Of a stretch of DNA of 64,000 nt, positions 35-63,568 are shown piece after piece. The notes under the pieces are model-generated. The model saw only the letters and a program-made list of their open reading frames with translations. It was not told where the DNA came from and did no database searches. How positions within the stretch are numbered: position 1 is the stretch's first letter; the number at the start of each line of letters is the position of its first letter. Origin of the DNA: an archaeon GW2011_AR5 (GTDB lineage: Archaea; Aenigmatarchaeota; Aenigmatarchaeia; GW2011-AR5); contig JWKQ01000001.1 of NCBI GenBank assembly GCA_000806115.1, positions 25,784 to 89,783 of the forward strand. Direction: 5' to 3'. Position numbers and translations under genes: made by a program.

Positions 35-553
35 ATGCCAGAAGTTCTTGACAAGGACACGATAAAGGCGATAAGCGCCGAGGCGAGACAGGAAATACTC
101 AAAATGCTCGCCAAGCGTCCATATACCGCGAGCGAGATAGCAAAGGCAACGGGCAAGCACGTAACCACCGTAACAGAGCATCTCAATGTCCTTGAGAAGT
201 CGAGCCTGGTGCGCAAGAAGGATTCCACCAACAAGTGGGTATATTATGAGCTCACCAGCAGGGGCGAGCATTTCTTCAAGCCGCAGTTCTACTCGTGGGT
301 AATCGTGTTCTCGCTGTCTGTCGTGTTCGTGTTCGTCGGAATGCTCAGGCTGTTCAGGTTTGAAAGCGAGACAAGAAATGCGATGGACATGGCTGCGAAT
401 GAACCTTCTCCTGCTTTCGGCGAAGCAGTCGCGCAGACAACTTCTCTGCCTGTTCCAATTGACTACATAGCTTACGCACTGATAGCGCTTGGAGCAATCG
501 GCATGATTTATCTGGCTTACAGAAAATACAGGATGCCGGCTACCTATAGGTAA
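35..553 (+). CDS. ArsR-type winged-helix regulator with C-terminal membrane anchor
   Basis: 172-aa ORF. YTASEIAKATGKHVTTVTEHLNVLEKSSLV fits the ArsR/SmtB HTH-wing pattern. The C-terminal half has two hydrophobic spans. Confidence 0.65.
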   Translation: MPEVLDKDTIKAISAEARQEILKMLAKRPYTASEIAKATGKHVTTVTEHLNVLEKSSLVRKKDSTNKWVYYELTSRGEHFFKPQFYSWVIVFSLSVVFVFVGMLRLFRFESETRNAMDMAANEPSPAFGEAVAQTTSLPVPIDYIAYALIALGAIGMIYLAYRKYRMPATYR

Positions 554-998
554 TGCGGATATGCCGGTAACCGTTCCCTAAAATAATGTCAGACAGCACC
601 CCGCTGACATAACCCGGATTTTCCCTGCAAAACCTTACGGCCGACCATTCTATCAAATCTTCTTCGCATGCATTCGAAGTCCCTGTCCAGGAATCTTCGT
701 ACAGTGCCCGCTTGTGCTTATTGAAAATACGCGATATCCTTTTCATATAGTAAATGTGTGCGACTTCATGCGCGAATGATTCATCCATTTTGTACTCGGG
801 ATGTGAAATATTCATCCATATCCAGTTAACCCCGCGCCCTAGATTTGTCATGCTGGCTCCGGGACTCTCAGAACCCCTCGAGGAGTAGAATTCTACCGAA
901 CTGATTTCGTACAAAAGAACCTTTTCAAAACTTTCCTTCTGCATTGGGTGGTCTTCAAAGAGCTTCTCCATCTCCCGAACAAATTCGGCTTCCCCCAT
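540..998 (-). CDS. hypothetical protein with HExxH zinc-peptidase motif
   Basis: The track ORF 540..1247 overlaps rps2, so the start was moved to the in-frame ATG at 998 (MGEAEF...). It contains HEVAH. No family recognised. Confidence 0.4.
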   Translation of the reverse strand: MGEAEFVREMEKLFEDHPMQKESFEKVLLYEISSVEFYSSRGSESPGASMTNLGRGVNWIWMNISHPEYKMDESFAHEVAHIYYMKRISRIFNKHKRALYEDSWTGTSNACEEDLIEWSAVRFCRENPGYVSGVLSDIILGNGYRHIRITYR

Positions 999-2761: not shown

Positions 2762-2821
2762 ACCAATCCCTTTCTTTTCCAAAAGAAAGGTCTAGGTCTT
2801 ACCCAAAGAAAAGGGTTTGAC
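2762..2821 (-). repeat. leader-type two-hairpin element, copy A, abutting the PAC2 ATG
   Basis: Gene-sense read: GTCAAACCCTTTTCTTTGGGTAAGACCTAGACCTTTCTTTTGGAAAAGAAAGGGATTGGT-ATG. It aligns with copies at 16438, 16941, 35572 and 40600. Confidence 0.8.
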
Positions 2822-2842
2822 TCAACCTTTCGGTTTTCAATA

Positions 2843-2974
2843 TTATTTTTTCTTTGCCAGCCGCCTGTATTTTCCGTACTTGTCCTCTGACGAGAATTTC
2901 GGCGGATGGGCGCTTCGCGCATGCTCGCAGCACCCTTTTGTCGTGTAGCCGTGAACCGGGCATTTTTTCAGCAT
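2843..2974 (-). CDS. nop10: H/ACA RNP component Nop10
   Basis: Hand translation gives MLKKCPVHGYTTKGCCEHARSAHPPKFSSEDKYGKYRRLAKKK (43 aa, below the track cut-off). It has the SAHPxxFSxEDKYxxYRR Nop10 signature and lies 5 nt downstream of aIF2-alpha, the usual archaeal order. Confidence 0.85.
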   Translation of the reverse strand: MLKKCPVHGYTTKGCCEHARSAHPPKFSSEDKYGKYRRLAKKK

Positions 2975-3859: not shown

Positions 3860-4144
3860 ATGAACATGGTTTATCTTGTGAAGGTGGACGACGAGGTATT
3901 CGCAATACCCGGCGGATTTGTTGACGTAGCATTGGACAGATACGCCGGAAGAACTATAAATTATGCCGAATTGAAAGAGGCTTTGAAAAGGGAAAGAATA
4001 GACGGAGGAGACGCCCCTCAAATGGGCGGTTTTGGCGATTTGGGTTATTTAGATTTTGATACAATGGAAGAACGTGCGTTAAGGGAACCTTTGCCGATAG
4101 GACGGCATCGCACTCTTTATCATAGGACGCGCGAACGCCAGTGA
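3860..4144 (+). CDS. hypothetical protein
   Basis: 94-aa ORF with no motif. Its last codons and stop lie inside repeat copy B, so the 3' end may be fortuitous. Confidence 0.3.
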   Translation: MNMVYLVKVDDEVFAIPGGFVDVALDRYAGRTINYAELKEALKRERIDGGDAPQMGGFGDLGYLDFDTMEERALREPLPIGRHRTLYHRTRERQ

Positions 4145-4206
4145 GCCTACAGTAATAGGTTTTCTTTTTTCCAAGGGTTTTTCTTTTTTCAAAAGAAAAA
4201 GGCTTA
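4131..4206 (-). repeat. stop-codon-type element, copy B, on the rps27e stop
   Basis: Minus-strand read: TAAGCCTTTTTCTTTTGAAAAAAGAAAAACCCTTGG..CCTATTACTGTA-GGCTCACTGGCGTTCGC. The 17-nt core is exact. Confidence 0.8.
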
Positions 4207-4380
4207 ATCCATGACTTCTTCGACTTTCGTCTGGACGTCCGCAAGCCCGCCCGTCGGCTGCGCCAGAACGGATTCACAAACGAGGCACTTAACCACCGTG
4301 GCTGCCTTGCTGAACACTATCTGCTCGTTGCGGCATTTCTTGCACTTGACTTTCAAAAATCTGCTTTTTGGAGATTCCAT
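4204..4380 (-). CDS. rps27e: 30S ribosomal protein S27e (eS27)
   Basis: MESPKSRFLKVKCKKCRNEQIVFSKAATVVKCLVCESVLAQPTGG, a C4 zinc-ribbon typical of eS27. Confidence 0.9.
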   Translation of the reverse strand: MESPKSRFLKVKCKKCRNEQIVFSKAATVVKCLVCESVLAQPTGGLADVQTKVEEVMD

Positions 4381-4439
4381 AATTATCAAACCTATTGTCT
4401 AGACAAAAGCATTAAAAGGCTCTATTCATATCTTTTTTC

Positions 4440-5133: not shown

Positions 5134-5349
5134 ATGATTATGCCGGACGACGCAACACCAGCCGAGATAATAACCGTCTTTGGACGCGCGGGCACAAAGG
5201 GCGTTACGAGCGTGAAGTGCAGGGTGATAGACGGCCGCGACAAGGGCAAAATTCTTACAAGAAACGTCATGGGTCCCGTGAGAATGGGCGACGTGATCAT
5301 GCTGCGCGAAACCGAGATGGAATCAAGCGGCAGCTATGGAAGGCGCTAA
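5134..5349 (+). CDS. rps28e: 30S ribosomal protein S28e (eS28)
   Basis: AEIITVFGRAGTKGVTSVKCRVIDGRDKGKILTRNVMGPVRMGDVIMLRETE matches eS28. Confidence 0.92.
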   Translation: MIMPDDATPAEIITVFGRAGTKGVTSVKCRVIDGRDKGKILTRNVMGPVRMGDVIMLRETEMESSGSYGRR

Positions 5350-5351
5350 AA

Positions 5352-5519
5352 ATGAAATGTTCATTCTGTTCGACAAACATAGAGAAAGGCACGGGCAAGA
5401 TGTTCATACACAGCGGCGGGAAGATTTTCTACTACTGCTCGAACAAGTGCGAGAAGAACCAGCAGAAGCTCGGCAGAGATCCAAGGAATTTCAAGTGGGC
5501 AAAACCCGAAGGACGCTAA
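5352..5519 (+). CDS. rpl24e: 50S ribosomal protein L24e (eL24)
   Basis: Internal ATG of the track ORF 5127..5519. MKCSFCSTNIEKGTGKMFIHSGGKIFYYCSNKCEKN matches the eL24 zinc-ribbon. Standard L7Ae-S28e-L24e order. Confidence 0.9.
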   Translation: MKCSFCSTNIEKGTGKMFIHSGGKIFYYCSNKCEKNQQKLGRDPRNFKWAKPEGR

Positions 5520-5603
5520 CAGACGGACGCGAACAGGTGACGCCAAAGGCGTCATACGACATCGCGTCATACACTTTCGTCGTGTACCTCGAAAAGAAAT
5601 AAG

Positions 5604-5677
5604 TGAGACCTTTCTTTTAGAAAAAGAAAGTCCTCAAGCCTAAAGAAAAATATTAATGGTGACTCTCTGGCATTCGC
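5604..5677 (+). repeat. stop-codon-type element, copy C (degenerate)
   Basis: TGAGACCTTTCTTTTAGAAAAAGAAAGTCCTCAAGCCTAAAGAAAAATATTAATGGTGACTCTCTGGCATTCGC. Same architecture as copies G and H, but the core is diverged. Confidence 0.6.
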
Positions 5678-5726: not shown

Positions 5727-7682
5727 TTATTTCGGGCCGAAGATAAACGGCTGCGGCTTCTCTTTTTCCTTCCTGATTTTCTTCGGATTTTCCGGTTTAA
5801 TCCCTCTCGGCTTTTTTCTCAGAACCTTAATCGCAACGCCGGCTGCCACTAAGACCGCCCCCAATATCGCAATTATGACAGGATTTGACGCGATTATATC
5901 CGACGCGCTTCCCCCGCCCGAGCCGAAAATATCGAATACAGAATTCCCGTTACCGCCGCCATTTCCGGGAATATCTTCGTCTCTGCATGTGCCGCAGTCC
6001 GCCGCACAGTTTGAACACGTTTCACTCAGGCTGCAAACATTATTGCCGCAGTCAGCCGGAGTGAAGTTTCCGGAACTGCCCGAGCCGTTCGCGCTTCCAT
6101 TTCTGCCATCGTTTTCCGAGTACCATAATCCCGGAGCATTTGAATTTCCGCTGCTGCTTCCACTATCTGAATTTACGGAGCCGCTTTTGCTCACTGTTAT
6201 TGTTTTTGAGGCTGAGCCCGAATTGCCTGCTGCATCGGTGGCTGTGACGCTAAGGCTGTACTCCCCGTTGCTAAGCCCCGAAGGATCATAATTCGCCTCG
6301 CACAGGATGCTGTTGCTGCTTGCGACTACGCACGACATTGTTGTGCCGCTTCCTGAAACCGTGTAACTGACACGCGTCCTGTCGTAGTTTGTGTCGTTCA
6401 CCGTGGCGCTGATTGTGAACGTGCTGCTTACAGCGGAATTAGGCCCTGTTATTGCCACTACCGGATCCGTGTTGTCTGCCGTGACGGCGACTGTGTCGGT
6501 GGCGGGCTGGTCCAGTATATTGCTTGCGTTCGCCGTGAGCGTGTAAGCCCCGTCACCTGCCGTTACAGTGTTGAACGAGTAGCTGCAGCTTGTAAACTGC
6601 GAGTTGCAGCTCATTGTTACGTTATTGCCGTATCCCGACCTCTCTATCCTGAGGTGCACGCCATTGATTATGCTGCCGGGGTTGGAGAGCGACGCGCTTA
6701 TGCTCGCAGTGCCCGTCACGTAACCTTCCGGGCTGAGCGTCACAGACGGCATGTTGTTGTTTATCGTAAGCGAGAAATTTGTCGAGTTCACGTTTCCTGC
6801 CGTATCATTAACGCTGAATGTGACGTTGTAAGCGTTGTCCGGAAAAAGAGCCGTGTTGACAGTGACGTTGCATGTTGCGTTTCTCGTGCCGGTGCAGGTC
6901 ATCGTACTTTCCGACCCTGATATGCTTAGCTTCCCCCTGTCGGCGCCAGAGAACGAGTCGAGCGCGTTAATAACAAATGAAACTGTGCCTCTCACAGTGG
7001 CGCCCGCCGAGTGGGAAGTTACGGAAATTCTCGGCTTTTCGTTGTCCACAGTTGCGTTGATGGCTGACGTGCCGGTGTTGTTGAGGATATCGGACGCACG
7101 AACATATATAGTTAGCGTCTGGTTGTTTGAATATGCAGACGAGTTGAAATATCCGGTGCCGGAAGGCATGCTGCTCCATGTTGAATTGTCAAGGGAGAGC
7201 CTGTACGCGTCGGCGTTTACCCCCGAGACTGCGTCTGTCGAACTTGCCCGCACAGTGACGTTGCCGGAAACGTACGAGCCGTTCAACGGAGCAAGGAATG
7301 TTATCACTGGTGGACTCCTGTCCAGTCTGAACTGGAAGAATCCCGGATTGCCCAGCCTGTTTACGCCTGAACTGTCGTTAGCCTCGAAATAGAAGAATTC
7401 AATGGTGTCCGCGCCTGCTATAGCAAAGGATACTGTTTTGGTGCAGTTGTAAGGATTTCCTGAACATTGCATTGTATATGTGTCCCAGGGTTCGCCGTTG
7501 ATGTATGCGTCTTCGGAGATGAGATAAAGCCTGGCATAATCAAGCGACGACGAGGTTACATTGACGTAGAAACTGACGTTGCCGCGGCCGAAATAACTGT
7601 TGTTCGCAGGGAGATAATTTGAGAGGGAAGCGGCCTGAACGCCCGGCAAAAGCATCAACACGACAAGAAGAAGCCATCGCAT
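5727..7682 (-). CDS. large secreted, membrane-anchored surface protein (probable glycoprotein)
   Basis: 651 aa. Signal peptide MRWLLLVVLMLLPGVQAAS, dozens of N-x-S/T sequons, a repetitive beta-rich body, the Cys-rich motif CGNNVCSLSETCSNCAADCGTC, a Gly/Asn/Ser linker, one C-terminal TM and a Lys/Arg tail. Confidence 0.75.
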   Translation of the reverse strand: MRWLLLVVLMLLPGVQAASLSNYLPANNSYFGRGNVSFYVNVTSSSLDYARLYLISEDAYINGEPWDTYTMQCSGNPYNCTKTVSFAIAGADTIEFFYFEANDSSGVNRLGNPGFFQFRLDRSPPVITFLAPLNGSYVSGNVTVRASSTDAVSGVNADAYRLSLDNSTWSSMPSGTGYFNSSAYSNNQTLTIYVRASDILNNTGTSAINATVDNEKPRISVTSHSAGATVRGTVSFVINALDSFSGADRGKLSISGSESTMTCTGTRNATCNVTVNTALFPDNAYNVTFSVNDTAGNVNSTNFSLTINNNMPSVTLSPEGYVTGTASISASLSNPGSIINGVHLRIERSGYGNNVTMSCNSQFTSCSYSFNTVTAGDGAYTLTANASNILDQPATDTVAVTADNTDPVVAITGPNSAVSSTFTISATVNDTNYDRTRVSYTVSGSGTTMSCVVASSNSILCEANYDPSGLSNGEYSLSVTATDAAGNSGSASKTITVSKSGSVNSDSGSSSGNSNAPGLWYSENDGRNGSANGSGSSGNFTPADCGNNVCSLSETCSNCAADCGTCRDEDIPGNGGGNGNSVFDIFGSGGGSASDIIASNPVIIAILGAVLVAAGVAIKVLRKKPRGIKPENPKKIRKEKEKPQPFIFGPK

Positions 7683-8137
7683 CAGTTGTTCACCTTCTCA
7701 AGCAGCCTGAGTATGTCCTTCTTTGTAACTATCCCGACAAGCTGGCTTGATTTCACGACAGGCAGTCTGTCTATGCCGTGCTTGTTCATCAACCTCGCAG
7801 CCTCGTAGACGTCACGTTCGACGTCCACCGAAATAACCTTCCTGTTCATGATGTCGCTTACCCGCGCTTTGAACAGCTTTCTGAGGCGGGCGGGGTCGCT
7901 GCCCTTCGATTTCAGGATGGATATCAGCAGCGAGGATATATCGCTTCTGTTAATCTTCCCGTATATGTCAATGGCACGGACTGCGTCCGTCTGGGTCACA
8001 ATACCAATCAGTTTTCCGTCCTTCACCACCGGACAGCCGCTGATGTTCCTGCCGGTCATGAGGCGCACGGCTTTGCCGAACGTGTCGTCCGGCTTCACAG
8101 TTACCGGGCGCTTTGTCATGATATCCTTAATTCTCAT
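7682..8137 (-). CDS. tandem CBS-domain protein
   Basis: 151 aa. Two CBS repeats (ISGCPVVKDGKLIGIVTQTD and IDRLPVVKSSQLVGIVTKKD). Confidence 0.85.
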   Translation of the reverse strand: MRIKDIMTKRPVTVKPDDTFGKAVRLMTGRNISGCPVVKDGKLIGIVTQTDAVRAIDIYGKINRSDISSLLISILKSKGSDPARLRKLFKARVSDIMNRKVISVDVERDVYEAARLMNKHGIDRLPVVKSSQLVGIVTKKDILRLLEKVNN

Positions 8138-8190
8138 GGTTGCTAATTGTCGGGGGCGGAATAAAAAGTTTCCAGACTCGGATGTATATA

Positions 8191-8346
8191 GTTCTCCAAG
8201 GAAATAAGCAATATATAATTACTTCCTTGGGAACTACAAGGTGAAGCAAAGCTTCACCTGTACAGGAGAATCAAAGATTCTCCTTGTATCTGTGAACCCA
8301 GAATTCATGTCCTGTTTCTTTTCCGGGTTCACTATAAGATATAAAA
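8191..8346 (+). repeat. four-hairpin module 1 ending in a strong TATA-like box
   Basis: Stems at 8191-8203/8223-8234, 8239-8247/8251-8259, 8262-8272/8276-8287 and 8292-8299/8325-8332, followed by TATAAGATATAAAAG. Confidence 0.7.
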
Positions 8347-8489
8347 GCCTTTAGTTTCAAGCTATAGCTGTTGAAGGCTAGGGGAATGGACAGATTAGCG
8401 CTTCGCGCGACATGTCCGCTTATTGCTCCGATGAACCTTTCGTGTGAGCTTCTCTTTTACAGAGATGCTCAATGCCACGCTCCTAATAT

Positions 8490-8604
8490 CCCGCATTTGA
8501 AGATGCGGGTTTCATGGGAACACAAGGCGAAACGAAGTTTCGCCTGTGCAGGAAAAGCTCAGCTTTTCCTTGCATGGCATCCCGCATTCTTCCAAGAAGA
8601 ATGC
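8490..8604 (+). repeat. four-hairpin module 2, colinear with module 1, upstream of rps13
   Basis: Stems at 8490-8496/8503-8509, 8525-8533/8537-8545, 8548-8558/8562-8573 and 8584-8592/8596-8604. It shares the linkers GGGAAC-ACAAGG, CCTGTRCAGG and CCTTGYAT with module 1. Confidence 0.7.
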
Positions 8605-8629
8605 AAGATAAACATACACGGGTAATTCA

Positions 8630-9124
8630 ATGGCTGAAGCTCCTAAACAAGAGACTCAAAGACGAATAGTCAGGGTAATGACCACCGACATAGACGGCTC
8701 GCTCAGCGTCGAGCGCGCGCTGCGCAAAATCAAGGGCGTCAGCTTCATGTTCTCAAAATCCGTCTGCACCGCAACCGGCATAGACAGAAGGAAAAAAATC
8801 GGGCTTCTCAGCGAGGCAGAGGTAAAGACTATAGAAGGTTTCATCAAGAAGCCGCAGCTCCCGAAATGGATGCTGAACAGGCGGAAGGAGCCTGAAAACG
8901 GCGACGATGCGCACCTTACCATGGCGGACCTGGATTTCAGGAAACGCGAGGACATAAACACACTCAGACGCATACGCGCCTACAAGGGCATACGTCACGA
9001 GCTCGGGCAGCCCGTGAGGGGACAGAGAACCAGGAGCAGTTTCAGGACGCAGAAAACAGTAGGAGTCTCGAGAAAGTCGATACAGCAGGCGTCCAAGCCG
9101 AAGCCAAAGGAAGAAAAGAAGTGA
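8630..9124 (+). CDS. rps13: 30S ribosomal protein S13 (uS13)
   Basis: IVRVMTTDIDGSLSVERALRKIKGV...IRAYKGIRHELGQPVRGQRTRS matches uS13. Confidence 0.93.
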   Translation: MAEAPKQETQRRIVRVMTTDIDGSLSVERALRKIKGVSFMFSKSVCTATGIDRRKKIGLLSEAEVKTIEGFIKKPQLPKWMLNRRKEPENGDDAHLTMADLDFRKREDINTLRRIRAYKGIRHELGQPVRGQRTRSSFRTQKTVGVSRKSIQQASKPKPKEEKK

Positions 9125-16437: not shown

Positions 16438-16496
16438 TACCGATCCTTTTTCTTGGAAGAAAAAGTCTAGGTATCGCCAAAAAGAACTGGAGATCC
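16438..16496 (-). repeat. leader-type two-hairpin element, copy D
   Basis: Gene-sense read: GGATCTCCAGTTCTTTTTGGCGATACCTAGACTTTTTCTTCCAAGAAAAAGGATCGGTA-ATG. Confidence 0.8.
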
Positions 16497-16547
16497 TGTA
16501 GACTTGACTTCGTGTATTATTTGGAAATTTACATGCCAAGAAGTGCA

Positions 16548-16940: not shown

Positions 16941-17002
16941 GTCGATCCCTTTTCTTTGAAAAGAAAAGGTCTAGACTATCACCCCAAAAGAAACAGGTGA
17001 TC
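16941..17002 (-). repeat. leader-type two-hairpin element, copy E
   Basis: Gene-sense read: GATCACCTGTTTCTTTTGGGGTGATAGTCTAGACCTTTTCTTTTCAAAGAAAAGGGATCGAC-ATG. Confidence 0.8.
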
Positions 17003-17030
17003 TTCAGACCTTGAATTCAATATTACTTTA

Positions 17031-27463: not shown

Positions 27464-27648
27464 GAGAATACTTGAGGACGCAACTTAAAAAAGAATTCAT
27501 CTTGAATGCGCCTGAAACTGCCGTCTTTAGACGGCATGCATTAGGGGCGCATTCGGGATCCCATCTTCTCACAAACCCACGGCTAAAGCCGTGGGTATAC
27601 AAAGAAGATGTGATGCGCTTTTGAAGTTTGCCATTCCCATTCTTATCA

Positions 27649-31239: not shown

Positions 31240-31378
31240 GCGAACGCCAGTGAGCCAGAATAACTAATAAGTTTCTTTGGGGTAAGACCTAGACCTTTCT
31301 CGTAAGAAACCAAAGGTTTCTGGCGACTCAGGAAAGCTCCGCTTTCCTCGAGTTTCCGAAAGAAAGGGATTGGTATTA
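31240..31378 (-). repeat. composite repeat copy F (stop-type core plus leader-type body with internal insertion)
   Basis: Exact core at 31240-31256 (reverse complement). The body matches copy A almost base for base (GGGTAAGACCTAGACCTTTC ... AAAGAAAGGGATTGGTAT). There is an extra ~55 nt with two hairpins at 31306-31320 and 31331-31347. Confidence 0.8.
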
Positions 31379-31858
31379 GTCTTCTTCGTGACCTATCTTG
31401 AACTTTTCCTGAACAAATTCCTTCATGTCCATGATGTCGTCCTTGCCGTTCTCGAGATAGCCGCGCCGCTGCTTGTAATAGAACCCATGGTTGTAGAACC
31501 ACCAGAAGCTGCGCTGTATGAAATTAGCAAACGTGTAGCCGGTCTCCAGCGTGCCCTTTATCTCTATTGAGAAGTTGCCGGTCCCGTCCTTGTTCTGGAC
31601 TCCCTGCACGATCACTCGGATGAGCGTTCTTGACCACTGGTCCTCTGTGCGCTTCCCCATCCAGACGCCGTAAAAGCCTCCGTCAGTGATGTCCCACCGG
31701 ATGTCCGTTTCGAGCAGGTCTTTCCCGGGAATCTTCATGATGGTCTTTATCATGTCCGGCACCATTCCCATGATGGCGGCAGGATTCGAGCCCCTGTAAA
31801 CCACCTTCAGCCTGTCAGACGGAGCCATCAGGTCGTCTATAATCTTGAGGTCGCCCAT
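31376..31858 (-). CDS. hypothetical protein, paralog 1
   Basis: 160 aa. The C-terminal aromatic helix FIQRSFWWFYNHGFYYKQRRGYLENGKD aligns with MFRRFWHNMFYQQQRMQYLNLGKE of the ORF at 32508..33026. Confidence 0.6.
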   Translation of the reverse strand: MGDLKIIDDLMAPSDRLKVVYRGSNPAAIMGMVPDMIKTIMKIPGKDLLETDIRWDITDGGFYGVWMGKRTEDQWSRTLIRVIVQGVQNKDGTGNFSIEIKGTLETGYTFANFIQRSFWWFYNHGFYYKQRRGYLENGKDDIMDMKEFVQEKFKIGHEED

Positions 31859-33180: not shown

Positions 33181-33528
33181 ATGGTACTTGAGATAATACT
33201 AGCGGCGGTGCTGATAGCTTTCGGAATCATTGCTATACTGTTCTCCATCAACGAGGATGTCAACGACAAGCAGCTGATTGTCGTGCTGCTGGTAGGGGTG
33301 GCTGCCATAATCGGCGGCGGCTGGATAATATTGACGCACGTCACGCTCTGGATACTGCTGGCGAAGCTCGCCGGGCTCATACTGGCGGGCATAGGGCTCT
33401 TCCTCATAATCGGGTTCCCGGACGTCGAGCCCGACTACCAGCTCCGCGGGATGTCAAACGCCGGGGTTTTCATAGGCATCGTGCTCCTGATAATCGGGGC
33501 TTACCTCCTGCTCTTCTACCCCGCTTGA
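33181..33528 (+). CDS. small polytopic membrane protein (4 TM)
   Basis: 115 aa made almost entirely of four hydrophobic helices. Its stop codon is the first 3 nt of repeat copy G. Confidence 0.6.
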   Translation: MVLEIILAAVLIAFGIIAILFSINEDVNDKQLIVVLLVGVAAIIGGGWIILTHVTLWILLAKLAGLILAGIGLFLIIGFPDVEPDYQLRGMSNAGVFIGIVLLIIGAYLLLFYPA

Positions 33529-33616
33529 GCCTTTCTTTCTTCAGAAGAAAGAAACCCTTAACGGAAAGAAAGAACTTATTATTAATTCTGGCTCACTGGC
33601 GTTCGCGAAAGCGAAC
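33526..33616 (+). repeat. stop-codon-type element, copy G
   Basis: TGAGCC-TTTCTTTCTTCAGAAGAAAGAAA-CCCTTAACGGAAAGAAAGAACTTATTATTAATTCT-GGCTCACTGGCGTTCGC, followed by the hairpin GTTCGC-GAAA-GCGAAC. Confidence 0.85.
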
Positions 33617-33689
33617 CACCTTATAATATTTTCTTTTTGATTGAGATTTTTCTTTACAAAGAAAAAGCTCAGCCGAGAAAACTTTATTT

Positions 33690-35468
33690 ATGGGGAGCGG
33701 GGATATAGTTCTACAGGAACAGGGCAAAAAATTAGATGTCAGAACCGATGGCGATATTATGGCTTTCAAAGACATGTTCAAACCGGTGAAAAAGAAAAAG
33801 GAGAAAAAAGAGAAGGGAAGCTGGATACTCGACGACATATCCAGGCACCCGCTAAAAGGCGACATACTCAACAAGGATCTGGGCAAGATGTGCGGGCCGA
33901 AGGGAAAGTGGCTGGGACATGTGATAGCCGCGGGACCTTTCGAGGCGCACCAGCAGCTTGACTTCACCGGGCCTCCGGGCTCGGTTTCCGGAATGTATTA
34001 CAGCCTTGTTTTCCAGCTCAGAAAATGGGAATATCAGGTGCAGAAGAGGGACGAATGGGTGGAGGTTTCTCCCGTCCATGCCCAGTACTACCAGCTGACC
34101 CAGAAGCAAAAAGAGGACCTCGAGGGGAGAATAAAGCAGGGGCTTGTTTCCGTCTCGCAATCCGTGGCAGACATGGAACTCCTTATGCACGACAGGCGCA
34201 GGTACCACGAGTTCCTCCATTACCTCGGCTACAGGACCCCGAAAGAACTTATCAAGGACAAGAAGCTTGAGGACAGGGAGAGGAAGGAACATTCCCATGT
34301 TGACGAGGAAATGGACGAGATATGCCTCAATGAGGATAATGACGACGACGAAAGAAAAGAAAGGGAAAAGCGGACGGACAACCATTCACTGAAGGCTGTT
34401 TTCATAGACCAGGTGGACATGCACACCGGCGAAGGGATTTCCATGAGGAGCATAGTGAGCCGCTGGCCCACGCTCATCACCGACTTCATGAGGATGGACG
34501 ACGGCGACATGGACCCGGACAAGGTGAAAAACAAGCTGGACATCTCCCGCGCAGAAGCAGTGGTTCTGATAACGAAGAACAAGCTCTACCAGGAATGGAA
34601 GAACATGTTCGGCCCCGAGATAAAGAACAGGTACGTCACCATCAATGACCTCACCCACGCAAGGAAGAAGTCCGTTGAGGAGTACAAGGAGTGGCTGAAG
34701 CCGTTCATAGCGCGCCACAGGCTGCTCAAGGAGGGGCTGGCGCAGGAAGGCATGCGCAAGGGAGGCGTGACATCGTTCGTCACCACAGCCGGCACGGCGA
34801 CATCATCGTCGAAAATCGTGCTTTACGTCTGGAAGGATTTCCTCGTGCCGGAACTCTACAAGGGCGGCTCGGAGGAGACTGCAAAGCTCAGGGAATTCAA
34901 GAAATTGAAACCAAATGACGACTGGACAATGAAGCACCTAATATTCAACGAGAGATACGGACTGATAAACAAATACGACTGGATCACGGAAGACTGGGTA
35001 AACGAACATGCGGAAAAAATGAAAAACGACGGATGGTTCACCCACCAGAAGCCCTATTACTCGTTCTTCCAGATAACGCTTGACAAGACGAACATAAGGA
35101 TGCCCACAGGCGACGAGCTCGAGGACGGCGTGTTTGACATAAACATGTTCTGCATGAGCGAGAACGCGCTTTTTGCAAAACTGCTCGAGCTGAAGGCGGA
35201 GCAGGAGCTGATGGAGCAGCACGTCAATAAACTGCTCGGGATGCACAAGCCCGTAAGGGGCAAGATTCCGAAATACGCGTTCAAGGAGGGCGCTTTTGAC
35301 AAGTTCCTCGACAGATTCAAAATGCCGTTCATTTTTGCCAAGAACCACGGGCCCTACGAACGCGACTTCGCAGACAGGCTCACGAAGATATACTTCGCGC
35401 GCATAGCAGGCGAGCGCTACGCACCGATAGTCAACTTCATCAAGGGCAAGATGGGGATGAAAGGTTGA
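33690..35468 (+). CDS. large uncharacterized protein
   Basis: 592-aa uninterrupted ORF with a Lys-rich N-terminus and an acidic insert (DEEMDEICLNEDNDDDERKEREKR). I recognised no catalytic or nucleotide-binding motif. Confidence 0.7.
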   Translation: MGSGDIVLQEQGKKLDVRTDGDIMAFKDMFKPVKKKKEKKEKGSWILDDISRHPLKGDILNKDLGKMCGPKGKWLGHVIAAGPFEAHQQLDFTGPPGSVSGMYYSLVFQLRKWEYQVQKRDEWVEVSPVHAQYYQLTQKQKEDLEGRIKQGLVSVSQSVADMELLMHDRRRYHEFLHYLGYRTPKELIKDKKLEDRERKEHSHVDEEMDEICLNEDNDDDERKEREKRTDNHSLKAVFIDQVDMHTGEGISMRSIVSRWPTLITDFMRMDDGDMDPDKVKNKLDISRAEAVVLITKNKLYQEWKNMFGPEIKNRYVTINDLTHARKKSVEEYKEWLKPFIARHRLLKEGLAQEGMRKGGVTSFVTTAGTATSSSKIVLYVWKDFLVPELYKGGSEETAKLREFKKLKPNDDWTMKHLIFNERYGLINKYDWITEDWVNEHAEKMKNDGWFTHQKPYYSFFQITLDKTNIRMPTGDELEDGVFDINMFCMSENALFAKLLELKAEQELMEQHVNKLLGMHKPVRGKIPKYAFKEGAFDKFLDRFKMPFIFAKNHGPYERDFADRLTKIYFARIAGERYAPIVNFIKGKMGMKG

Positions 35469-35539
35469 GCCTTTTTCTTTGAGGAAAGAAAAAGCCTCAA
35501 CGGAAAAAGAAAATATTACTAAGGCTCACTGGCGTTCGC
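35466..35539 (+). repeat. stop-codon-type element, copy H
   Basis: TGAGCC-TTTTTCTTTGAGGAAAGAAAAAG-CCTCAACGGAAAAAGAAAATATTACTAA-GGCTCACTGGCGTTCGC. Confidence 0.85.
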
Positions 35540-35571
35540 TGAAAAATAATATTTGAAGATAAAGTTTACAA

Positions 35572-35626
35572 GATCACCAGTTCTTTTGGTGAGACGTAGA
35601 CTTTTCTTACCAAGAAAAGGATCCGT
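35572..35626 (+). repeat. leader-type two-hairpin element, copy J
   Basis: GATCACCAGTTCTTTTGGTGAGACGTAGACTTTTCTTACCAAGAAAAGGATCCGT-ATG. Confidence 0.8.
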
Positions 35627-37333
35627 ATGTCAGAAGAACAAAAAAAACCGCTGTACACCGTGGGCATATCGACAGGATTTTGGAGAATCGGCAAGGACCC
35701 CAATCTGCTCGGCCTGGCGCAGAAAATCGGCGGGCTGGGCGCCACGGGCGGAATCCGGTTCGTCCAGATAGACCTAGAGACGATAGCGGAGTTCGCCGAG
35801 CCTGACGTAAGAAATCAAATAAGGCGCATCCAGAGCAAGCTTGGCATCGGCGAAGTCGGACTTCACGGGGAGATAGGCGAGCTGATGGCGCTGGACTCGG
35901 CGGAGAAGCGCATATGGGATCAGACGCACCGAAGGCTCTGCCAGACGGTGAAATTCGCCGCTGAGGTGGGATTTCTTTATGTAAATGTCCACTTCTCAAA
36001 CAAGCAGTTCATTTCTTTTACCGAGGCGCAGCACCGGACGCAGGGTTACTTCTATCCTGTCGTGGGCTATGACGGAAGAGGGTTGCAGAACGTAGTGAAG
36101 GACCATCCTGCAATCTGGGACGAGGTAAAGAAGCGCATGCCACGGACGCTTTCGCAGAGTGGCACATTCCAGGAAAAATACAGAGCGTTGCGAGAATCCA
36201 AGATCGCCCAAGCGCCGGTGCTCATCGAGCAGGCAGTGAGAAGGGACATGGAAATGATTCCAGAAGGGCAACGGACACCGGAGGAGAGAAAAAGACGTGA
36301 AGAGTACCACAAAAATCAGATAGTGCCCAGCCTTCTGCAGCAGGCAAGGGAAGAGGCTCAGTCACCAGAGTTCGAATTCGATGCATGGCTGAACTTGAGA
36401 GATGACGAGTCAGAGAAGTACCAGCTGGACGACGGGGAATGGGGCGCATACCATGTGATTGCTCACTGCATGAAGGCTGCGCATGACACGTTCTGGTCGA
36501 ACATAGCCGGGAACAAAGATCCAGAATCGCTTTACTTCAAGGACGAACAGGCCTTCTGCGCGGCTGTGTCGTCAAAATACATAGAAGGACACCTGACGCT
36601 CAAGGATAATGATGCCAACAGAAAACATCTGGATGGAATGAGCGTCAAGGAATGGTGCGAGAAGCACAAGCTCATGCTTCTGCTTGAAAACCCGGAGTCC
36701 GGAGAAGGCGCCGAGGGGCTATACAGGCTGTTCGACCCGCAGCAGTTCTATTTTACGATAAAGAAAATAGGCTCGCCTTACGTGCGCGTGACGATAGACT
36801 TCGAGCACATGGTGTCGCAGGGCATAGACCCTGATGACATGCTTCCCAAGCTTCCTGGCGATTTCGGAAAAATGATATTCTTATTTCACCTGGGGCAGGC
36901 TGTGCCTTACGGCGGAACAGCCCACATACCCATAGCCAGAGGCAGCATCGCGCAGGAGCAGATATACAGGTGGCTTTTCTGGATGCGCAAAAAGGGATGG
37001 ACGCGCGGCTACATGATGTTCGAGCGCGGCGGCGGGCGCACCGGACAGGGGAGGCTGCCGAACGAGGTGTTCGAGGACAGCGTGCAGGCGCTGCGTCAGA
37101 TTGCCACATACCTGGAGAAAGACGCCAAGCCCGAGGCGCTCCCGCCGGAATTCTACGGGGTATCGGTGCGGAACGAGCCCGTATGGGCGCGGCAGATGGT
37201 GGCCATACGCGAGCATGCATGGGACCCGCTCGAGGGGCTGCTGAGCGTGTCCGAGGAGAAGCACACGTTCCTCAGCAAGGCAGCTGTCGAAAAGAACAAG
37301 GCGCAGGAATGGGAGAAGCGGAAGTTCAGGTAA
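35627..37333 (+). CDS. xylose-isomerase-like TIM-barrel protein with a large charged insertion (tentative)
   Basis: 568 aa. Strand-end motifs VGLHGE, LYVNVH, LLLENPE, TIDFEH, LFHLGQ and MFERGG resemble the sugar-phosphate isomerase/endonuclease IV TIM-barrel superfamily. A ~200-aa insert rich in Glu/Arg/Gln separates the halves. Confidence 0.55.
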   Translation: MSEEQKKPLYTVGISTGFWRIGKDPNLLGLAQKIGGLGATGGIRFVQIDLETIAEFAEPDVRNQIRRIQSKLGIGEVGLHGEIGELMALDSAEKRIWDQTHRRLCQTVKFAAEVGFLYVNVHFSNKQFISFTEAQHRTQGYFYPVVGYDGRGLQNVVKDHPAIWDEVKKRMPRTLSQSGTFQEKYRALRESKIAQAPVLIEQAVRRDMEMIPEGQRTPEERKRREEYHKNQIVPSLLQQAREEAQSPEFEFDAWLNLRDDESEKYQLDDGEWGAYHVIAHCMKAAHDTFWSNIAGNKDPESLYFKDEQAFCAAVSSKYIEGHLTLKDNDANRKHLDGMSVKEWCEKHKLMLLLENPESGEGAEGLYRLFDPQQFYFTIKKIGSPYVRVTIDFEHMVSQGIDPDDMLPKLPGDFGKMIFLFHLGQAVPYGGTAHIPIARGSIAQEQIYRWLFWMRKKGWTRGYMMFERGGGRTGQGRLPNEVFEDSVQALRQIATYLEKDAKPEALPPEFYGVSVRNEPVWARQMVAIREHAWDPLEGLLSVSEEKHTFLSKAAVEKNKAQEWEKRKFR

Positions 37334-40599: not shown

Positions 40600-40654
40600 A
40601 TCGATCCCTTTCTTGCAAGAAAGGTCTAGATTTCACCCCAAAGAACTGGGGATC
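40600..40654 (-). repeat. leader-type two-hairpin element, copy I
   Basis: Gene-sense read: GATCCCCAGTTCTTTGGGGTGAAATCTAGACCTTTCTTGCAAGAAAGGGATCGAT-ATG. Confidence 0.8.
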
Positions 40655-40722
40655 TTGAAGAACTGCTTTCAGATATTATCAACCTTACTTGAGCCAGAAG
40701 TTTTAAAAAGGTTAGGTGCCCG

Positions 40723-41518: not shown

Positions 41519-41596
41519 ACAGGAGAATTTTCGATTCTCCTTGTATATGTGAACCCACTTGCGCGAAAATCTTTTGTGGGTTCACTATAAAAATAT
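41519..41596 (+). promoter_or_regulatory. two-hairpin module plus TATA box of the leaderless DNA ligase gene
   Basis: Stems at 41519-41528/41533-41544 and GTGAACCC 41549-41556/GGGTTCAC 41578-41585, then TATAAAAATAT at 41586-41596, centred ~25 nt before the ATG at 41615. Confidence 0.6.
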
Positions 41597-48141: not shown

Positions 48142-48218
48142 CAGGAAATCTCTCAAATAAAGGAACTTTATAGTTCTACAAGGAAACAAACAAGAAAAAA
48201 ACCAGCTTGCTGTGAGAA

Positions 48219-54945: not shown

Positions 54946-55013
54946 GGAATAATTATGAAAGAATCAGTAAATAAAAGCGGCTGGTAATTGCCGTGTCGGC
55001 TCATAACTATATA

Positions 55014-55105
55014 GTGAACCCAGAAAAGAATATGTGCACGCTGGGTTCACAGATAGTTCCCAAGGAAATAATATCCAGATTGTTTCCTTGGAGAACTATA
55101 AATAT
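55014..55105. promoter_or_regulatory. divergent promoter with two inverted repeats flanked by TATA boxes
   Basis: GTGAACCC 55014-55021/GGGTTCAC 55043-55050 and GTTCCCAAGGAAA 55056-55068/TTTCCTTGGAGAAC 55083-55096. TATAAATAT at 55097-55105 is centred ~28 nt before the ATG at 55129. ACTATATAG at 55006-55014 faces the minus-strand gene. Confidence 0.6.
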
Positions 55106-62677: not shown

Positions 62678-63568
62678 TCAATAGCCCCTCTTCTTGTCCA
62701 CCACATTAATGAGCTTCTTCCCCTTCTTGAAAGCTTCCAGGTTTCTGCAGAAAATCTCCACCATCCTGTCCTCGTAGTGTGGAGTGCGCGATGCGCAGTG
62801 CGCCGTTATTATCACGTTCTTCATCTTCCATAGCAAGCTTGATTTTTTCAGCGGTTCGCTCTCGAACACGTCGAGGCACGCGCCTGCGATGCGCCCCTTT
62901 CTCAATGCAGCAACCAGCGCATGTTCGTCGACGACAGGGCCGCGCCCGACGTTGACAAGCACCGCCGATTTTTTCATCGCCGAGAATTCTTTCGCGCCCA
63001 TCAGGCGGCGCGTTTCGTCCGTGAGCGGAAGGCACGCGACAACGTAATCAGCCTGCGGAAGCATGCCGTGCAGCTTCCCCGGAAGGGCAGCGTTGTCCAC
63101 GTATTTGCTTTTTACAGGCTCGTTGTTTATTCCAATGACGCGGCATCCGAAAGCCTTGCAGAGCCTTGCGATTTCCAGACCAATGGCGCCCAAGCCGAGC
63201 ACAAACACCGTCTTCCCCGCGAGTTCGCCGCCTGTTATCCTGTTCCAATCCCGATTCTGTTGCGAAGCGAACGCGTCCCTTAGCTTCCTTTCAAAAGCCA
63301 GAACAAGCGCCATCGCGTGCTCGGGCACCGGCGTTTTCATCCCGCGCGAATTCGTGACGATGACGCCGCTTTTCTTGATGCCGTCTGTCAGAAGGACATC
63401 AACCCCGACGAAGGATGTATGTATCCATTTAAGATTCCTGTACTTCCCGACGTCGATCCTGTCCTCAACAAGCGCAACGTCCGCATCGTAGCCTTTCGTG
63501 ATGCTTGCAAGCCCGGCTATTTTTGCAATGTTCTCTTTTTTCAGCTTCTTCAGCAGAACTACTTTCAT
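62678..63568 (-). CDS. D-isomer-specific 2-hydroxyacid dehydrogenase
   Basis: NAD-binding GLGAIGLEIARLCKAFGCRVIG and the catalytic region VNVGRG..D...L.....GA.LDVF..EP...ITAH. Confidence 0.88.
   Translation of the reverse strand: MKVVLLKKLKKENIAKIAGLASITKGYDADVALVEDRIDVGKYRNLKWIHTSFVGVDVLLTDGIKKSGVIVTNSRGMKTPVPEHAMALVLAFERKLRDAFASQQNRDWNRITGGELAGKTVFVLGLGAIGLEIARLCKAFGCRVIGINNEPVKSKYVDNAALPGKLHGMLPQADYVVACLPLTDETRRLMGAKEFSAMKKSAVLVNVGRGPVVDEHALVAALRKGRIAGACLDVFESEPLKKSSLLWKMKNVIITAHCASRTPHYEDRMVEIFCRNLEAFKKGKKLINVVDKKRGY

Follow-up and report, generated by a model that had tools for sequence, protein, structure and literature searches.

We found that a 64,000-nucleotide stretch of DNA from the archaeon GW2011_AR5 (contig JWKQ01000001.1; below, the window means this whole stretch) contains five copies of a unit of ~75-90 nt that we call the cassette. 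All five have the same parts in the same order: the end of a co-oriented open reading frame (ORF), a hairpin, a short spacer, an A-rich tract, TATTA, 3-8 nt, and a 17-nt sequence that we call the box. The pairing of the hairpin is supported by covariation, the cassette is associated with gene ends, including the end of an RNA gene, the box is conserved in place, and the cassette is present patchily among relatives. The reading that we hold, tentatively, is that the cassette is a copied, selectively maintained gene-boundary element that acts at the level of DNA or transcription between transcription units.

Architecture of the cassette

The initial annotation of the window described four exact 17-mers and one degenerate copy, and we found all five in place. 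The sequence GGCTCACTGGCGTTCGC is present exactly at 33590-33606(+), 35523-35539(+), 4131-4147(-) and 31240-31256(-), and a copy with 3 mismatches, GACTCTCTGGCATTCGC, is at 5661-5677(+). Dinucleotide shuffles of the window contained a mean of 0.22 matches to the 17-mer, and 0 of 100 shuffles reached 5. The order given in that annotation (hairpin, purine-rich tract, TATTA, core) was also seen in 5/5 copies. The 5' arm of the hairpin is pyrimidine-rich (T-rich) and the 3' arm is purine-rich, and the window copies share no related sequence 3' of the 17-mer. The copies are:

33525..33561, plus strand: hairpin of copy G, with outer stem TTGAG (33525-29)/CTTAA (33557-61) that includes the TGA stop (33526-28) of ORF 33181..33528; inner stem TTTCTTTCTT/AAGAAAGAAA with loop CAG, and a CC/CC internal loop between the inner and outer stems
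33565..33585, plus strand: A-rich tract AAAGAAAGAA and TATA-like TTATTATTAA of copy G, with the look of a promoter with a B recognition element (BRE) and TATA box
33590..33606, plus strand: 17-nt box of copy G, GGCTCACTGGCGTTCGC, with two GYTCRC half-sites 10 bp apart
33601..33671, minus strand: second unit, head to head with copy G, reading TGAGC-hairpin(33646-33671)-TCAATC-AAAAAGAAAA-TATTATAA-GGT-GGTTCGC...
35464..35539, plus strand: copy H, with outer stem GTTGAG/CTCAAC that includes the TGA stop (35466-68) of the 592-aa ORF (33690..35468), inner stem CTTTTTCTTT/AAAGAAAAAG, A-tract at 35504-13, TATTACTAA at 35514-22 and box at 35523-39
4131..4207, minus strand: copy A, after the gene for ribosomal protein S27e (ORF 4204..4389), with outer stem TTAAG (4207-03)/CTTGG (4175-71) that includes the TAA stop (4206-04), inner hairpin at 4200-4178, A-tract at 4170-59, TATTA at 4157-53 and box at 4147-4131
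5604..5677, plus strand: copy B, with outer stem TGAG (5604-07)/CTCA (5633-36), inner hairpin at 5610-5630, TATTA at 5651-55 and the degenerate box GACTCTCTGGCATTCGC at 5661-77
31240..31378, minus strand: copy F, an expanded form, with the TAA stop (31378-76) of ORF 31376..31858, then the extra hairpins GAGGAAAGC..GCTTTCCT and CCAGAAACC..GGTTTCTT, then AAAGAAAC-TTATTAG-TTATTCT and the box at 31256-31240

Each copy had been described as starting at the stop codon of the upstream ORF. This is so for three copies, which begin at real stops (TGA-GCC at 33526 and 35466, and TAA-GCC at 4206-4204), and not for copies B and F. The TGA at 5604 in copy B is not an ORF stop; the stop of ORF 5336..5602 is the TAA at 5600-5602, and the TGAG at 5604-5607, one base on, is the outer stem of the element. 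(A convergent gene encoding a 651-aa immunoglobulin (Ig)-domain protein ends at 5727.) The box of copy F (31256-31240(-)) is 119 nt from the TAA of its ORF, with the extra hairpins between.

The GTTCGC-GAAA-GCGAAC hairpin seen after copy G is present and is the junction of the head-to-head pair. The second unit has a partial box that overlaps the G box by 6 nt, and this overlap gives rise to the hairpin. The composite (33526-33672) has a predicted fold of -39.5 kcal/mol (z = -4.1). The second unit is absent from L169, a 95% relative (L numbers are our labels for sequences outside the window, and the percentages given for relatives are the protein identity of their homologue of the 592-aa ORF to that of the window).

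The hairpin (~17 bp) has two stems, an inner one of 9-10 bp and an outer one of 4-6 bp, with a 1x1 or 2x2 internal loop between them. We aligned 19 hairpins in a fixed register, and 79.5% of the cells were paired, compared to 65.9 +/- 1.5% in shuffles. Changes on both sides of a pair were found in 61 cells, compared to 23.6 in shuffles and 5-14 with the partner column slid. UA and CG interchange freely in the inner stem. The stop codon is within the outer stem, where TGA faces CTCA in 10 copies (and 1 more with a G.U), TAA faces a CTTA-type sequence in 6 copies, and TAG faces CTA. That is, the middle base of the stop codon is in a G-C pair in 10 copies, a G.U pair in 1 and an A-U pair in 6. 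At site H, which follows the 592-aa gene, the outer stem is GTTGAG/CTCAAC in the window, CTTGAG/CTCAAG in L169, ATAAGGC/GCCTTAT in L170, and GTGAG/CTCAC in L172, a compensatory change in place that reaches the last sense codon. Single units had weak folding z-scores (-0.5 to -2.0), since shuffles of T-rich and A-rich sequence also fold.

The outer stem belongs to the element and not to translation. In copy B and in L128 and L129 the gene stop is a few bases upstream, yet the element keeps its own TGAG or TAAG, and the outer stem of a cassette that follows an RNA gene (see below) is CAAT/ATTG. The initial annotation had taken TGAGCC and GGCTCA to be terminal inverted repeats. We found that the stop bases covary with the CTCA, CTTA or CTA directly after the inner hairpin, and that the 17-mer keeps GGCTCA in copies with TAAG or TAG stops. 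Thus, the proposed terminal repeats do not covary.

The box reads G-GYTCRC-TGGC-GYTCRC, with GYTCRC half-sites at positions 2-7 and 12-17. Half-sites 10 bp apart, one helical turn, suggest a tandem dimer. Among variants, T4, T8, C15 and C17 are essentially fixed and the centre varies most. A swapped form, GG-TTCGC-TGGCG-CTCAC, was found twice in L139 and also at site H of the closest relative, L169, where it is accompanied by an insertion of ~130 nt of nested hairpins. An internal hairpin in the box (pairs 3-16, 6-13 and 7-12) is hinted at by the swapped variant GGTTCGCTGGCGCTCAC and by C7T+G12A and is contradicted by GGCTTACTGGCGCTCAC (L137) and other variants; the two-half-site model fits as well or better. 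We found no consistent pairing partner for the box within the element. As a pairing site for rRNA or signal recognition particle (SRP) RNA, its best matches (12-13/17 including wobble; 16S 3' half and SRP RNA) were at chance level. A tRNA primer-binding site, a C/D-box small RNA, a CRISPR leader-repeat, an origin recognition box (ORB) and a dif site do not fit the context: the downstream sequence is unconserved, C/D boxes are lacking, and the copies lie scattered.

A small hairpin repeat, CCCACGNCTNNAGNCGTGGG, is present at 27555-27614 in the window, at 6861-6933 in L139, at 7247-7305 in L123 and at ~2235-2360 in L169. In the site-H cassette of L169 it is inserted between TATTA and the box.

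Gene ends, distribution and conservation in place

Every copy is 3' of the end of a co-oriented gene, irrespective of what lies downstream. The gene need not encode a protein. In L071, at 380-800(-), a full cassette begins 4 nt past an archaeal SRP RNA gene (Rfam RF01857, 120 bits), indicating that neither translation nor a stop codon is required. Such a hairpin is found at only ~5 of the window's roughly 80 gene ends, so it is not the general terminator. The suggestion that insertion of the element defines ORF 3' ends does not hold: besides the copy after the SRP RNA gene, orthologues that lack the element stop at the same codon (..FYPA* compared to ..FYPV*; ..KFR* in both).

Approximately 40% of the copies face a convergent gene, and the background in one related gene table is 10/23 gene ends. 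In several copies the stop of the convergent ORF touches the box or falls inside it. Units were found head to head, with boxes abutting or overlapping, at 3 sites (window 33526-33671, L139 3119-3292 and L137 5006-5289), and those in L139 and L137 are orthologous to each other. Tandem or nested units without a box were found in L126, L079 and L137.

A convergent 94-aa ORF at 3860-4144(+) in the window would end at a TGA in the reverse complement of the copy A box. This ORF and convergent ORFs in L071 and L121 (80-115 aa, all three unrelated) end in ..E(R/C)Q*, with these codons and the TGA supplied by the box read in reverse complement. These three ORFs may be genes and are candidates only.

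The cassette is lineage-specific and was found in one subclade of Aenigmarchaeota, a lineage of the DPANN archaea; the archaeon of the window is a member of this lineage from Rifle groundwater. The proteins encoded in the window are archaeal (S27e, eIF2-alpha, eIF2-beta, S3Ae, Nre, RNA polymerase subunit D, RNase P p30 and similar), proteins identical to them are present on groundwater contigs from the Rifle aquifer, and almost all named homologues of the 592-aa ORF are from Candidatus Aenigmarchaeota. Searching beyond the window, as had been proposed, gave at least ~25 more distinct copies with the same architecture in related metagenome-assembled genomes (MAGs) and metagenomes. Besides the clade of the window, DATDXH01, DATDUC01 and CAYJUT01 are genomes that bear the box. 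A scan of species-representative genomes with the 17-mer gave at least 5 matches in 3 archaeal MAGs, all with the full architecture; the majority of the matches listed were chance matches in high-GC bacteria. A TATTA-anchored metagenome scan gave 22 loci (~14 distinct), all with the architecture, and a profile search that started from those loci gave ~9 additional copies with variant boxes.

Other searches gave no relative of the cassette. There was no match at the gathering score to any Rfam family in the window, and the cassette fits none; at E<5 the single match in the region 33450-35700 was due to chance. Scans of viral contigs with both box types gave only chance matches in GC-rich contigs, without the cassette architecture. 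Literature searches for the 17-mer sequence and for intergenic hairpins of Aenigmarchaeota found no description.

Among the matches listed, a few unrelated bacterial MAGs contain the same 17-mer several times: L040, L055 and L103 (a Rhodomicrobium MAG), L032 (a Gemmata MAG), L016/L087/L100 and L006/L042. There it lies within GC-rich repeats of different architecture (a back-to-back palindrome in Gemmata), which probably belong to unrelated families.

Conservation of the box at orthologous sites, where silent positions are saturated, far exceeds that of neutral sequence. We compared two pairs of orthologous sites:

Window copy H and L170: third codon positions 54% identical, element before the box 72%, box 17/17, 60 nt downstream 62%
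L075 and L129: third codon positions 48% identical, element before the box 79%, box 17/17, 60 nt downstream 54%

Among copies, sequences outside the 17-mer are only ~72-80% alike. An exact 17-mer at non-homologous sites requires copying, and its persistence in place requires selection or continual conversion.

The presence of the cassette at a given site differs among syntenic relatives:

Site G: occupied in the window and, in an already degraded state, in the 95% relative L169, and in no other; L166 (83%) lacks it, and its ORF stops at the same codon
Site H: occupied in relatives at 80-95%; at 75% there is a bare hairpin or nothing, and at 68% or less the site is empty
Site F: unoccupied in L166
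Site after the 568-aa gene: the window and L170 lack the cassette, L172 and L173 have degenerate copies, and the copy in L126/L176 is intact; the ORF ends in ..KFR* with or without the element

There were no copies in loci of ~21 kb each from the distant relatives L167, L168 and L175.

In L127, a 15-nt direct repeat, AAAGGGCTGTTAGAT (5248-5262 and 5376-5390), surrounds a hairpin module of ~115 nt that is of the copy F type. The module contains TTATTA, lacks the 17-mer, and is just upstream of a tRNA gene (5429-5497). The repeat and module look like a duplication or insertion scar.

Proposed function and alternatives

The cassette has the parts expected of a terminator and of a promoter. The T-tracts in the 5' arm (T5CT3, T3CT4 and similar) start 0-10 nt past stop codons and 4 nt past the 3' end of the SRP RNA. 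As sequence, this is what is expected of archaeal oligo-T terminators, in which a T-tract directly follows the transcription unit. AA..TATTA is invariant among the copies, and the A-rich tract with (C/A)(T/A)TATTA is of the same type as the BRE/TATA promoters of this genome, in which the TATA box is 29-33 nt upstream of the ATG of apparently leaderless window genes (for example, GAAAGCTTATTAATTG before the gene at 62678-63568(-) and TATAAAAATA before 41615(+)). The gap between TATTA and the box is most commonly 7 nt (range 3-8), and the invariant C15-R16-C17 of the box is ~29 nt from the start of the TATA-like octamer. Thus, to judge from the DNA alone, the BRE-like purine tract, the TATA octamer and a pyrimidine-purine step ~25-30 nt on are all present. 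The expected start site would be at C15-R16, at the 3' edge of the box, which is a pyrimidine-purine step in both the normal and the swapped forms. A box-like sequence also follows other types of TATA at an equal short distance in L139 (~7113-7130) and L137 (5139-), behind GGGTTCAC-TATAAAA and GGGTCAAC-TATATAT, indicating that the box is tied to TATA boxes and not to the hairpin.

Based on these features, we suggest how a gene-boundary element of this kind might work. The T-tracts on both strands (in the hairpin arms and in the complement of the A-tract), together with the hairpin, would stop polymerases arriving from either side. The TATA/BRE would recruit TBP and TFB, and a sequence-specific factor, perhaps a tandem dimer, would bind the box. 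The complex of TBP, TFB and the box factor might either start a new transcript from the 3' edge of the box or serve as a stationary block or insulator. New copies would arise by a copy-and-paste process (transposition, recombination or gene conversion) and would then be selected at some gene ends and decay at others. The terminator and promoter cassette proposed in the initial annotation would fit this anatomy.

A more specific version is that the box is the site of a dedicated DNA-binding protein and that, with the hairpin and T-tracts, it forms a factor-dependent, sequence-specific terminator or insulator of archaeal RNA polymerase, of the roadblock type, that has spread from gene end to gene end in one DPANN lineage. 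We regard this version as doubtful.

Several observations weigh against the reading that we favor. For the majority of downstream genes in the same direction, there is a separate TATA ~30 nt before the ATG and 5-25 nt past the box, so a promoter in the cassette would be unnecessary for them and would crowd theirs. A GC-rich block across the region that needs to melt is unusual in an archaeal promoter. In ~40% of the copies the putative promoter would drive transcription into a convergent gene or, in L139, window copy G and L137, directly into another cassette. If polymerase stopped at the T-tract of the 5' arm, then the RNA hairpin could not form, though its pairing is selected; either transcripts run through or the structure acts as DNA. 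The mismatches at fixed register (2 G.U and 7 A.C) do not reveal which strand is transcribed; an apparent excess of G.U in a first count was a scoring bias. Last, 17/17 identity exceeds the need of most protein-binding sites.

It is possible, though we think it unlikely, that the BRE/TATA and the 17-bp box are a bona fide class of regulated promoter. A lineage-specific regulator or an alternative TFB would then use the region from -15 to +2 as its operator or recognition site, the hairpin would be merely the terminator of the upstream gene, and the copies would constitute a regulon that includes antisense transcripts. The match to BRE/TATA with correct spacing, the conserved C-R-C at the expected start site, the box behind two TATA types at equal distance, and direct half-sites that suggest a DNA-binding dimer are all consistent with a promoter. 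So is the downstream gene in L071, which could have a leader of ~31 nt, with a Shine-Dalgarno sequence, beginning directly after the box. In contrast, the hairpin, A-tract, TATTA and box move as one, and the unit is tied to the end of the upstream gene and not to the downstream gene. In addition, the share of copies in convergent contexts equals background, head-to-head pairs would fire at each other within ~30 nt, and most downstream genes have a TATA of their own.

An element that acts in RNA seems to us improbable as well. The transcript of the upstream gene would span the cassette, the hairpin would protect or define its 3' end, and the single-stranded A-rich/UAUUA sequence and box would be bound by an RNA-binding protein or a complementary RNA. 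Such a 3'-untranslated-region element would account for compensatory changes that keep pairing even when coding bases are included, and for the strict association and co-orientation with the upstream transcription unit, SRP RNA included. Near-absolute identity over 17 nt is more typical of base-pairing targets, and T-tracts are often found 10-30 nt past the box. However, the T5-rich 5' arm directly after the gene should terminate archaeal RNA polymerase, the sense strand has no excess of G.U over A.C mismatches, the box has no consistent partner in the element, the 16S 3' half or SRP RNA, and Rfam has no match. On this reading, it would be a coincidence that TATTA is invariant and resembles real promoters.

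We think it quite unlikely that the cassette is simply a selfish, non-autonomous mobile element, either a miniature inverted-repeat transposable element (MITE) or one like repetitive extragenic palindromes (REPs) or palindrome-associated transposable elements (PATEs), in which the 17-mer and hairpin are recognized by a transposase encoded elsewhere and the location at gene ends reflects target preference or the survival of harmless insertions. Part of this proposal, which was in the initial annotation, stands: presence or absence differs between relatives at sites G, F and H and at the site after the 568-aa gene, and there are decayed copies (L169 site G, L172, L173). The nested, tandem and head-to-head arrangements, the hairpin modules inserted between relatives, the direct repeat around the module in L127, and the need for copying to place an exact 17-mer at non-homologous sites also favor mobility. 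In contrast, the marks of a classical MITE are absent. There are no covarying terminal inverted repeats and no element-defined ORF ends, and we found no target-site duplication, that is, no consistent flanking repeat of the TNA/TTAA type. The box is followed by T, G or A, with no match to the left flank except for a chance TGA in copies H and B. The copies diverge by 20-28% outside the box while the box is intact, and a 17/17 box despite saturated silent sites, together with stems compensated in place, points to selection at the level of the host or to constant conversion. Neither the 64-kb window nor the gene tables of related loci (~190 kb) contained a transposase or integrase, and Y1_Tnp (the RAYT domain) had no match in the Pfam tables for the window and related loci, which cover the genomes in part.

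Two particular forms of mobility are not supported. A recent MITE burst does not fit copies so dissimilar outside the 17-mer and a 17-mer conserved at saturated orthologous sites, and no transposase was seen in the window and related loci. A PATE derived from IS200/IS605 does not fit single units that have one hairpin at one end only and a non-palindromic box at the other; neither TnpA nor TnpB was seen. The evidence does not support a classical MITE.

Other sequence features and comparison with known systems

The 592-aa ORF downstream of copy G probably starts later than annotated. A candidate for the true ATG is at 33759 (ATGGCTTTCAAAGAC, within 33690-33761), and starting there would give a protein of 569 aa. 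Alignments to homologues span only 94-96% of the query, the closest of them is itself 569 aa long, and the start in L169 is ..GGTATGGCTTTCAA.

We also noticed a second conserved family, a 5' leader of ~80 nt, at 35545-35626(+), 40600-40690(-), 16941-17030(-), 16438-16520(-) and 2762-2850(-) in the window. It consists of a TATA (ATAATATT), a stem-loop (GATCNCCAGTTCTTTTGGNGA), TAGA, a T/A hairpin (CTTTTCTT/AAGAAAAG), GGATCNNT and the ATG. It precedes the 568-aa ORF and the genes for S3Ae, eIF2-beta, a DUF424 protein and a PAC2 protein, and in relatives it also precedes the homologue of the 592-aa ORF. Palindromic boxes abut TATA (GTGAACCC...GGGTTCAC-TATAA) at 8290-8340, 41548-41596 and 55003-55050, and another palindromic box, TATAGTTCTNCAAGGAAAC, often in an inverted pair, is at 8182-8240, 48167-48189, 55054-55105 and 33702-33722. 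These palindromic boxes look like operator sites common to several promoters. Approximately 500 nt upstream of the S13 gene (8130-8630) have no convincing ORF, no Rfam match, and GC-rich hairpins such as GGTGAAGC..GCTTCACC and CAAGGCGAAAC..GTTTCGCCTGTG; this region may be an unrecognized RNA gene. Outside the window, a match to 16S rRNA in L127 (10531-11319(-)) ends at model position 1467 after ..GTCGTAAC, with unrelated sequence beyond; the 3' end of the rRNA gene may contain an insertion or intron, or the assembly may be broken there.

The transcription signals of DPANN archaea, which are not culturable alone, are little known, and the cassette is a compact, recognizable and evolutionarily constrained signal at the ends of transcription units. 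If it is a factor-bound module that functions as a terminator, insulator or promoter, then it offers a handle on how small, gene-dense archaeal genomes limit interference between neighboring and convergent genes, as well as a testable DNA-protein pair. If it is selfish, then archaea have a counterpart of REP-like elements, one that is unusual in architecture and lacks inverted repeats. Either way, it helps in annotating these MAGs: their gene ends, their non-coding regions and the start of the 592-aa ORF.

The cassette resembles several known systems in part. Like the REPs and bacterial interspersed mosaic elements (BIMEs) of Gammaproteobacteria, whose REP doublets (REPINs) are mobilized by RAYT, it has a short, extragenic, imperfect palindrome just past gene 3' ends, singly or in inverted pairs (window copy G, L139 and L137). 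Both the cassette and these elements differ in presence between relatives and number tens to hundreds per genome, and for both the proposed roles include termination, protection of mRNA or protein binding. Unlike in these elements, the conserved part of the cassette is a non-palindromic 17-mer outside the hairpin, and the hairpin sequence drifts with compensation. The cassette also has an integral BRE/TATA-like box and an archaeal host, and no gene for a RAYT or IS200-like protein was seen in the window and related loci. Correia elements of Neisseria (CREE/NEMIS) are likewise repeats of ~100 nt near gene ends, with promoter-like and terminator-like signals and a protein-binding site, but they have their own 26-bp terminal inverted repeats and a TA target duplication, both absent from the cassette. 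The attC sites of integrons are structured, imperfect inverted repeats at or overlapping the stop of the preceding ORF and co-oriented with it, with structure conserved over sequence. In contrast, the cassette is without arrays, integrase, or R/L core sites, and its genes are housekeeping genes (S27e, SRP RNA) in conserved synteny.

In the terminators of eukaryotic RNA polymerase I (Pol I) that use a roadblock (Reb1/Nsi1, or TTF-I at the Sal box), a T-rich release region at the end of a transcription unit is a little upstream of a box of ~17-18 bp that is bound by a sequence-specific protein. The cassette might work like these; no homology is implied, and its box-binding protein is hypothetical. 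Archaeal BRE/TATA promoters and oligo-T terminators share with the cassette the A-rich tract and TATTA, T5-type tracts right after the gene, and a start site on a pyrimidine-purine step, here in the box. Ordinary archaeal promoters differ in that they have no conserved 17-bp GC-rich block between TATA and start, no fused hairpin, and no tie to the end of the upstream gene. None of the nearest known elements (REP/BIME, Correia elements, or archaeal promoters and terminators) combines a hairpin that embeds the stop codon, a BRE/TATA box, and a near-invariant, non-palindromic 17-bp box, as the cassette does.

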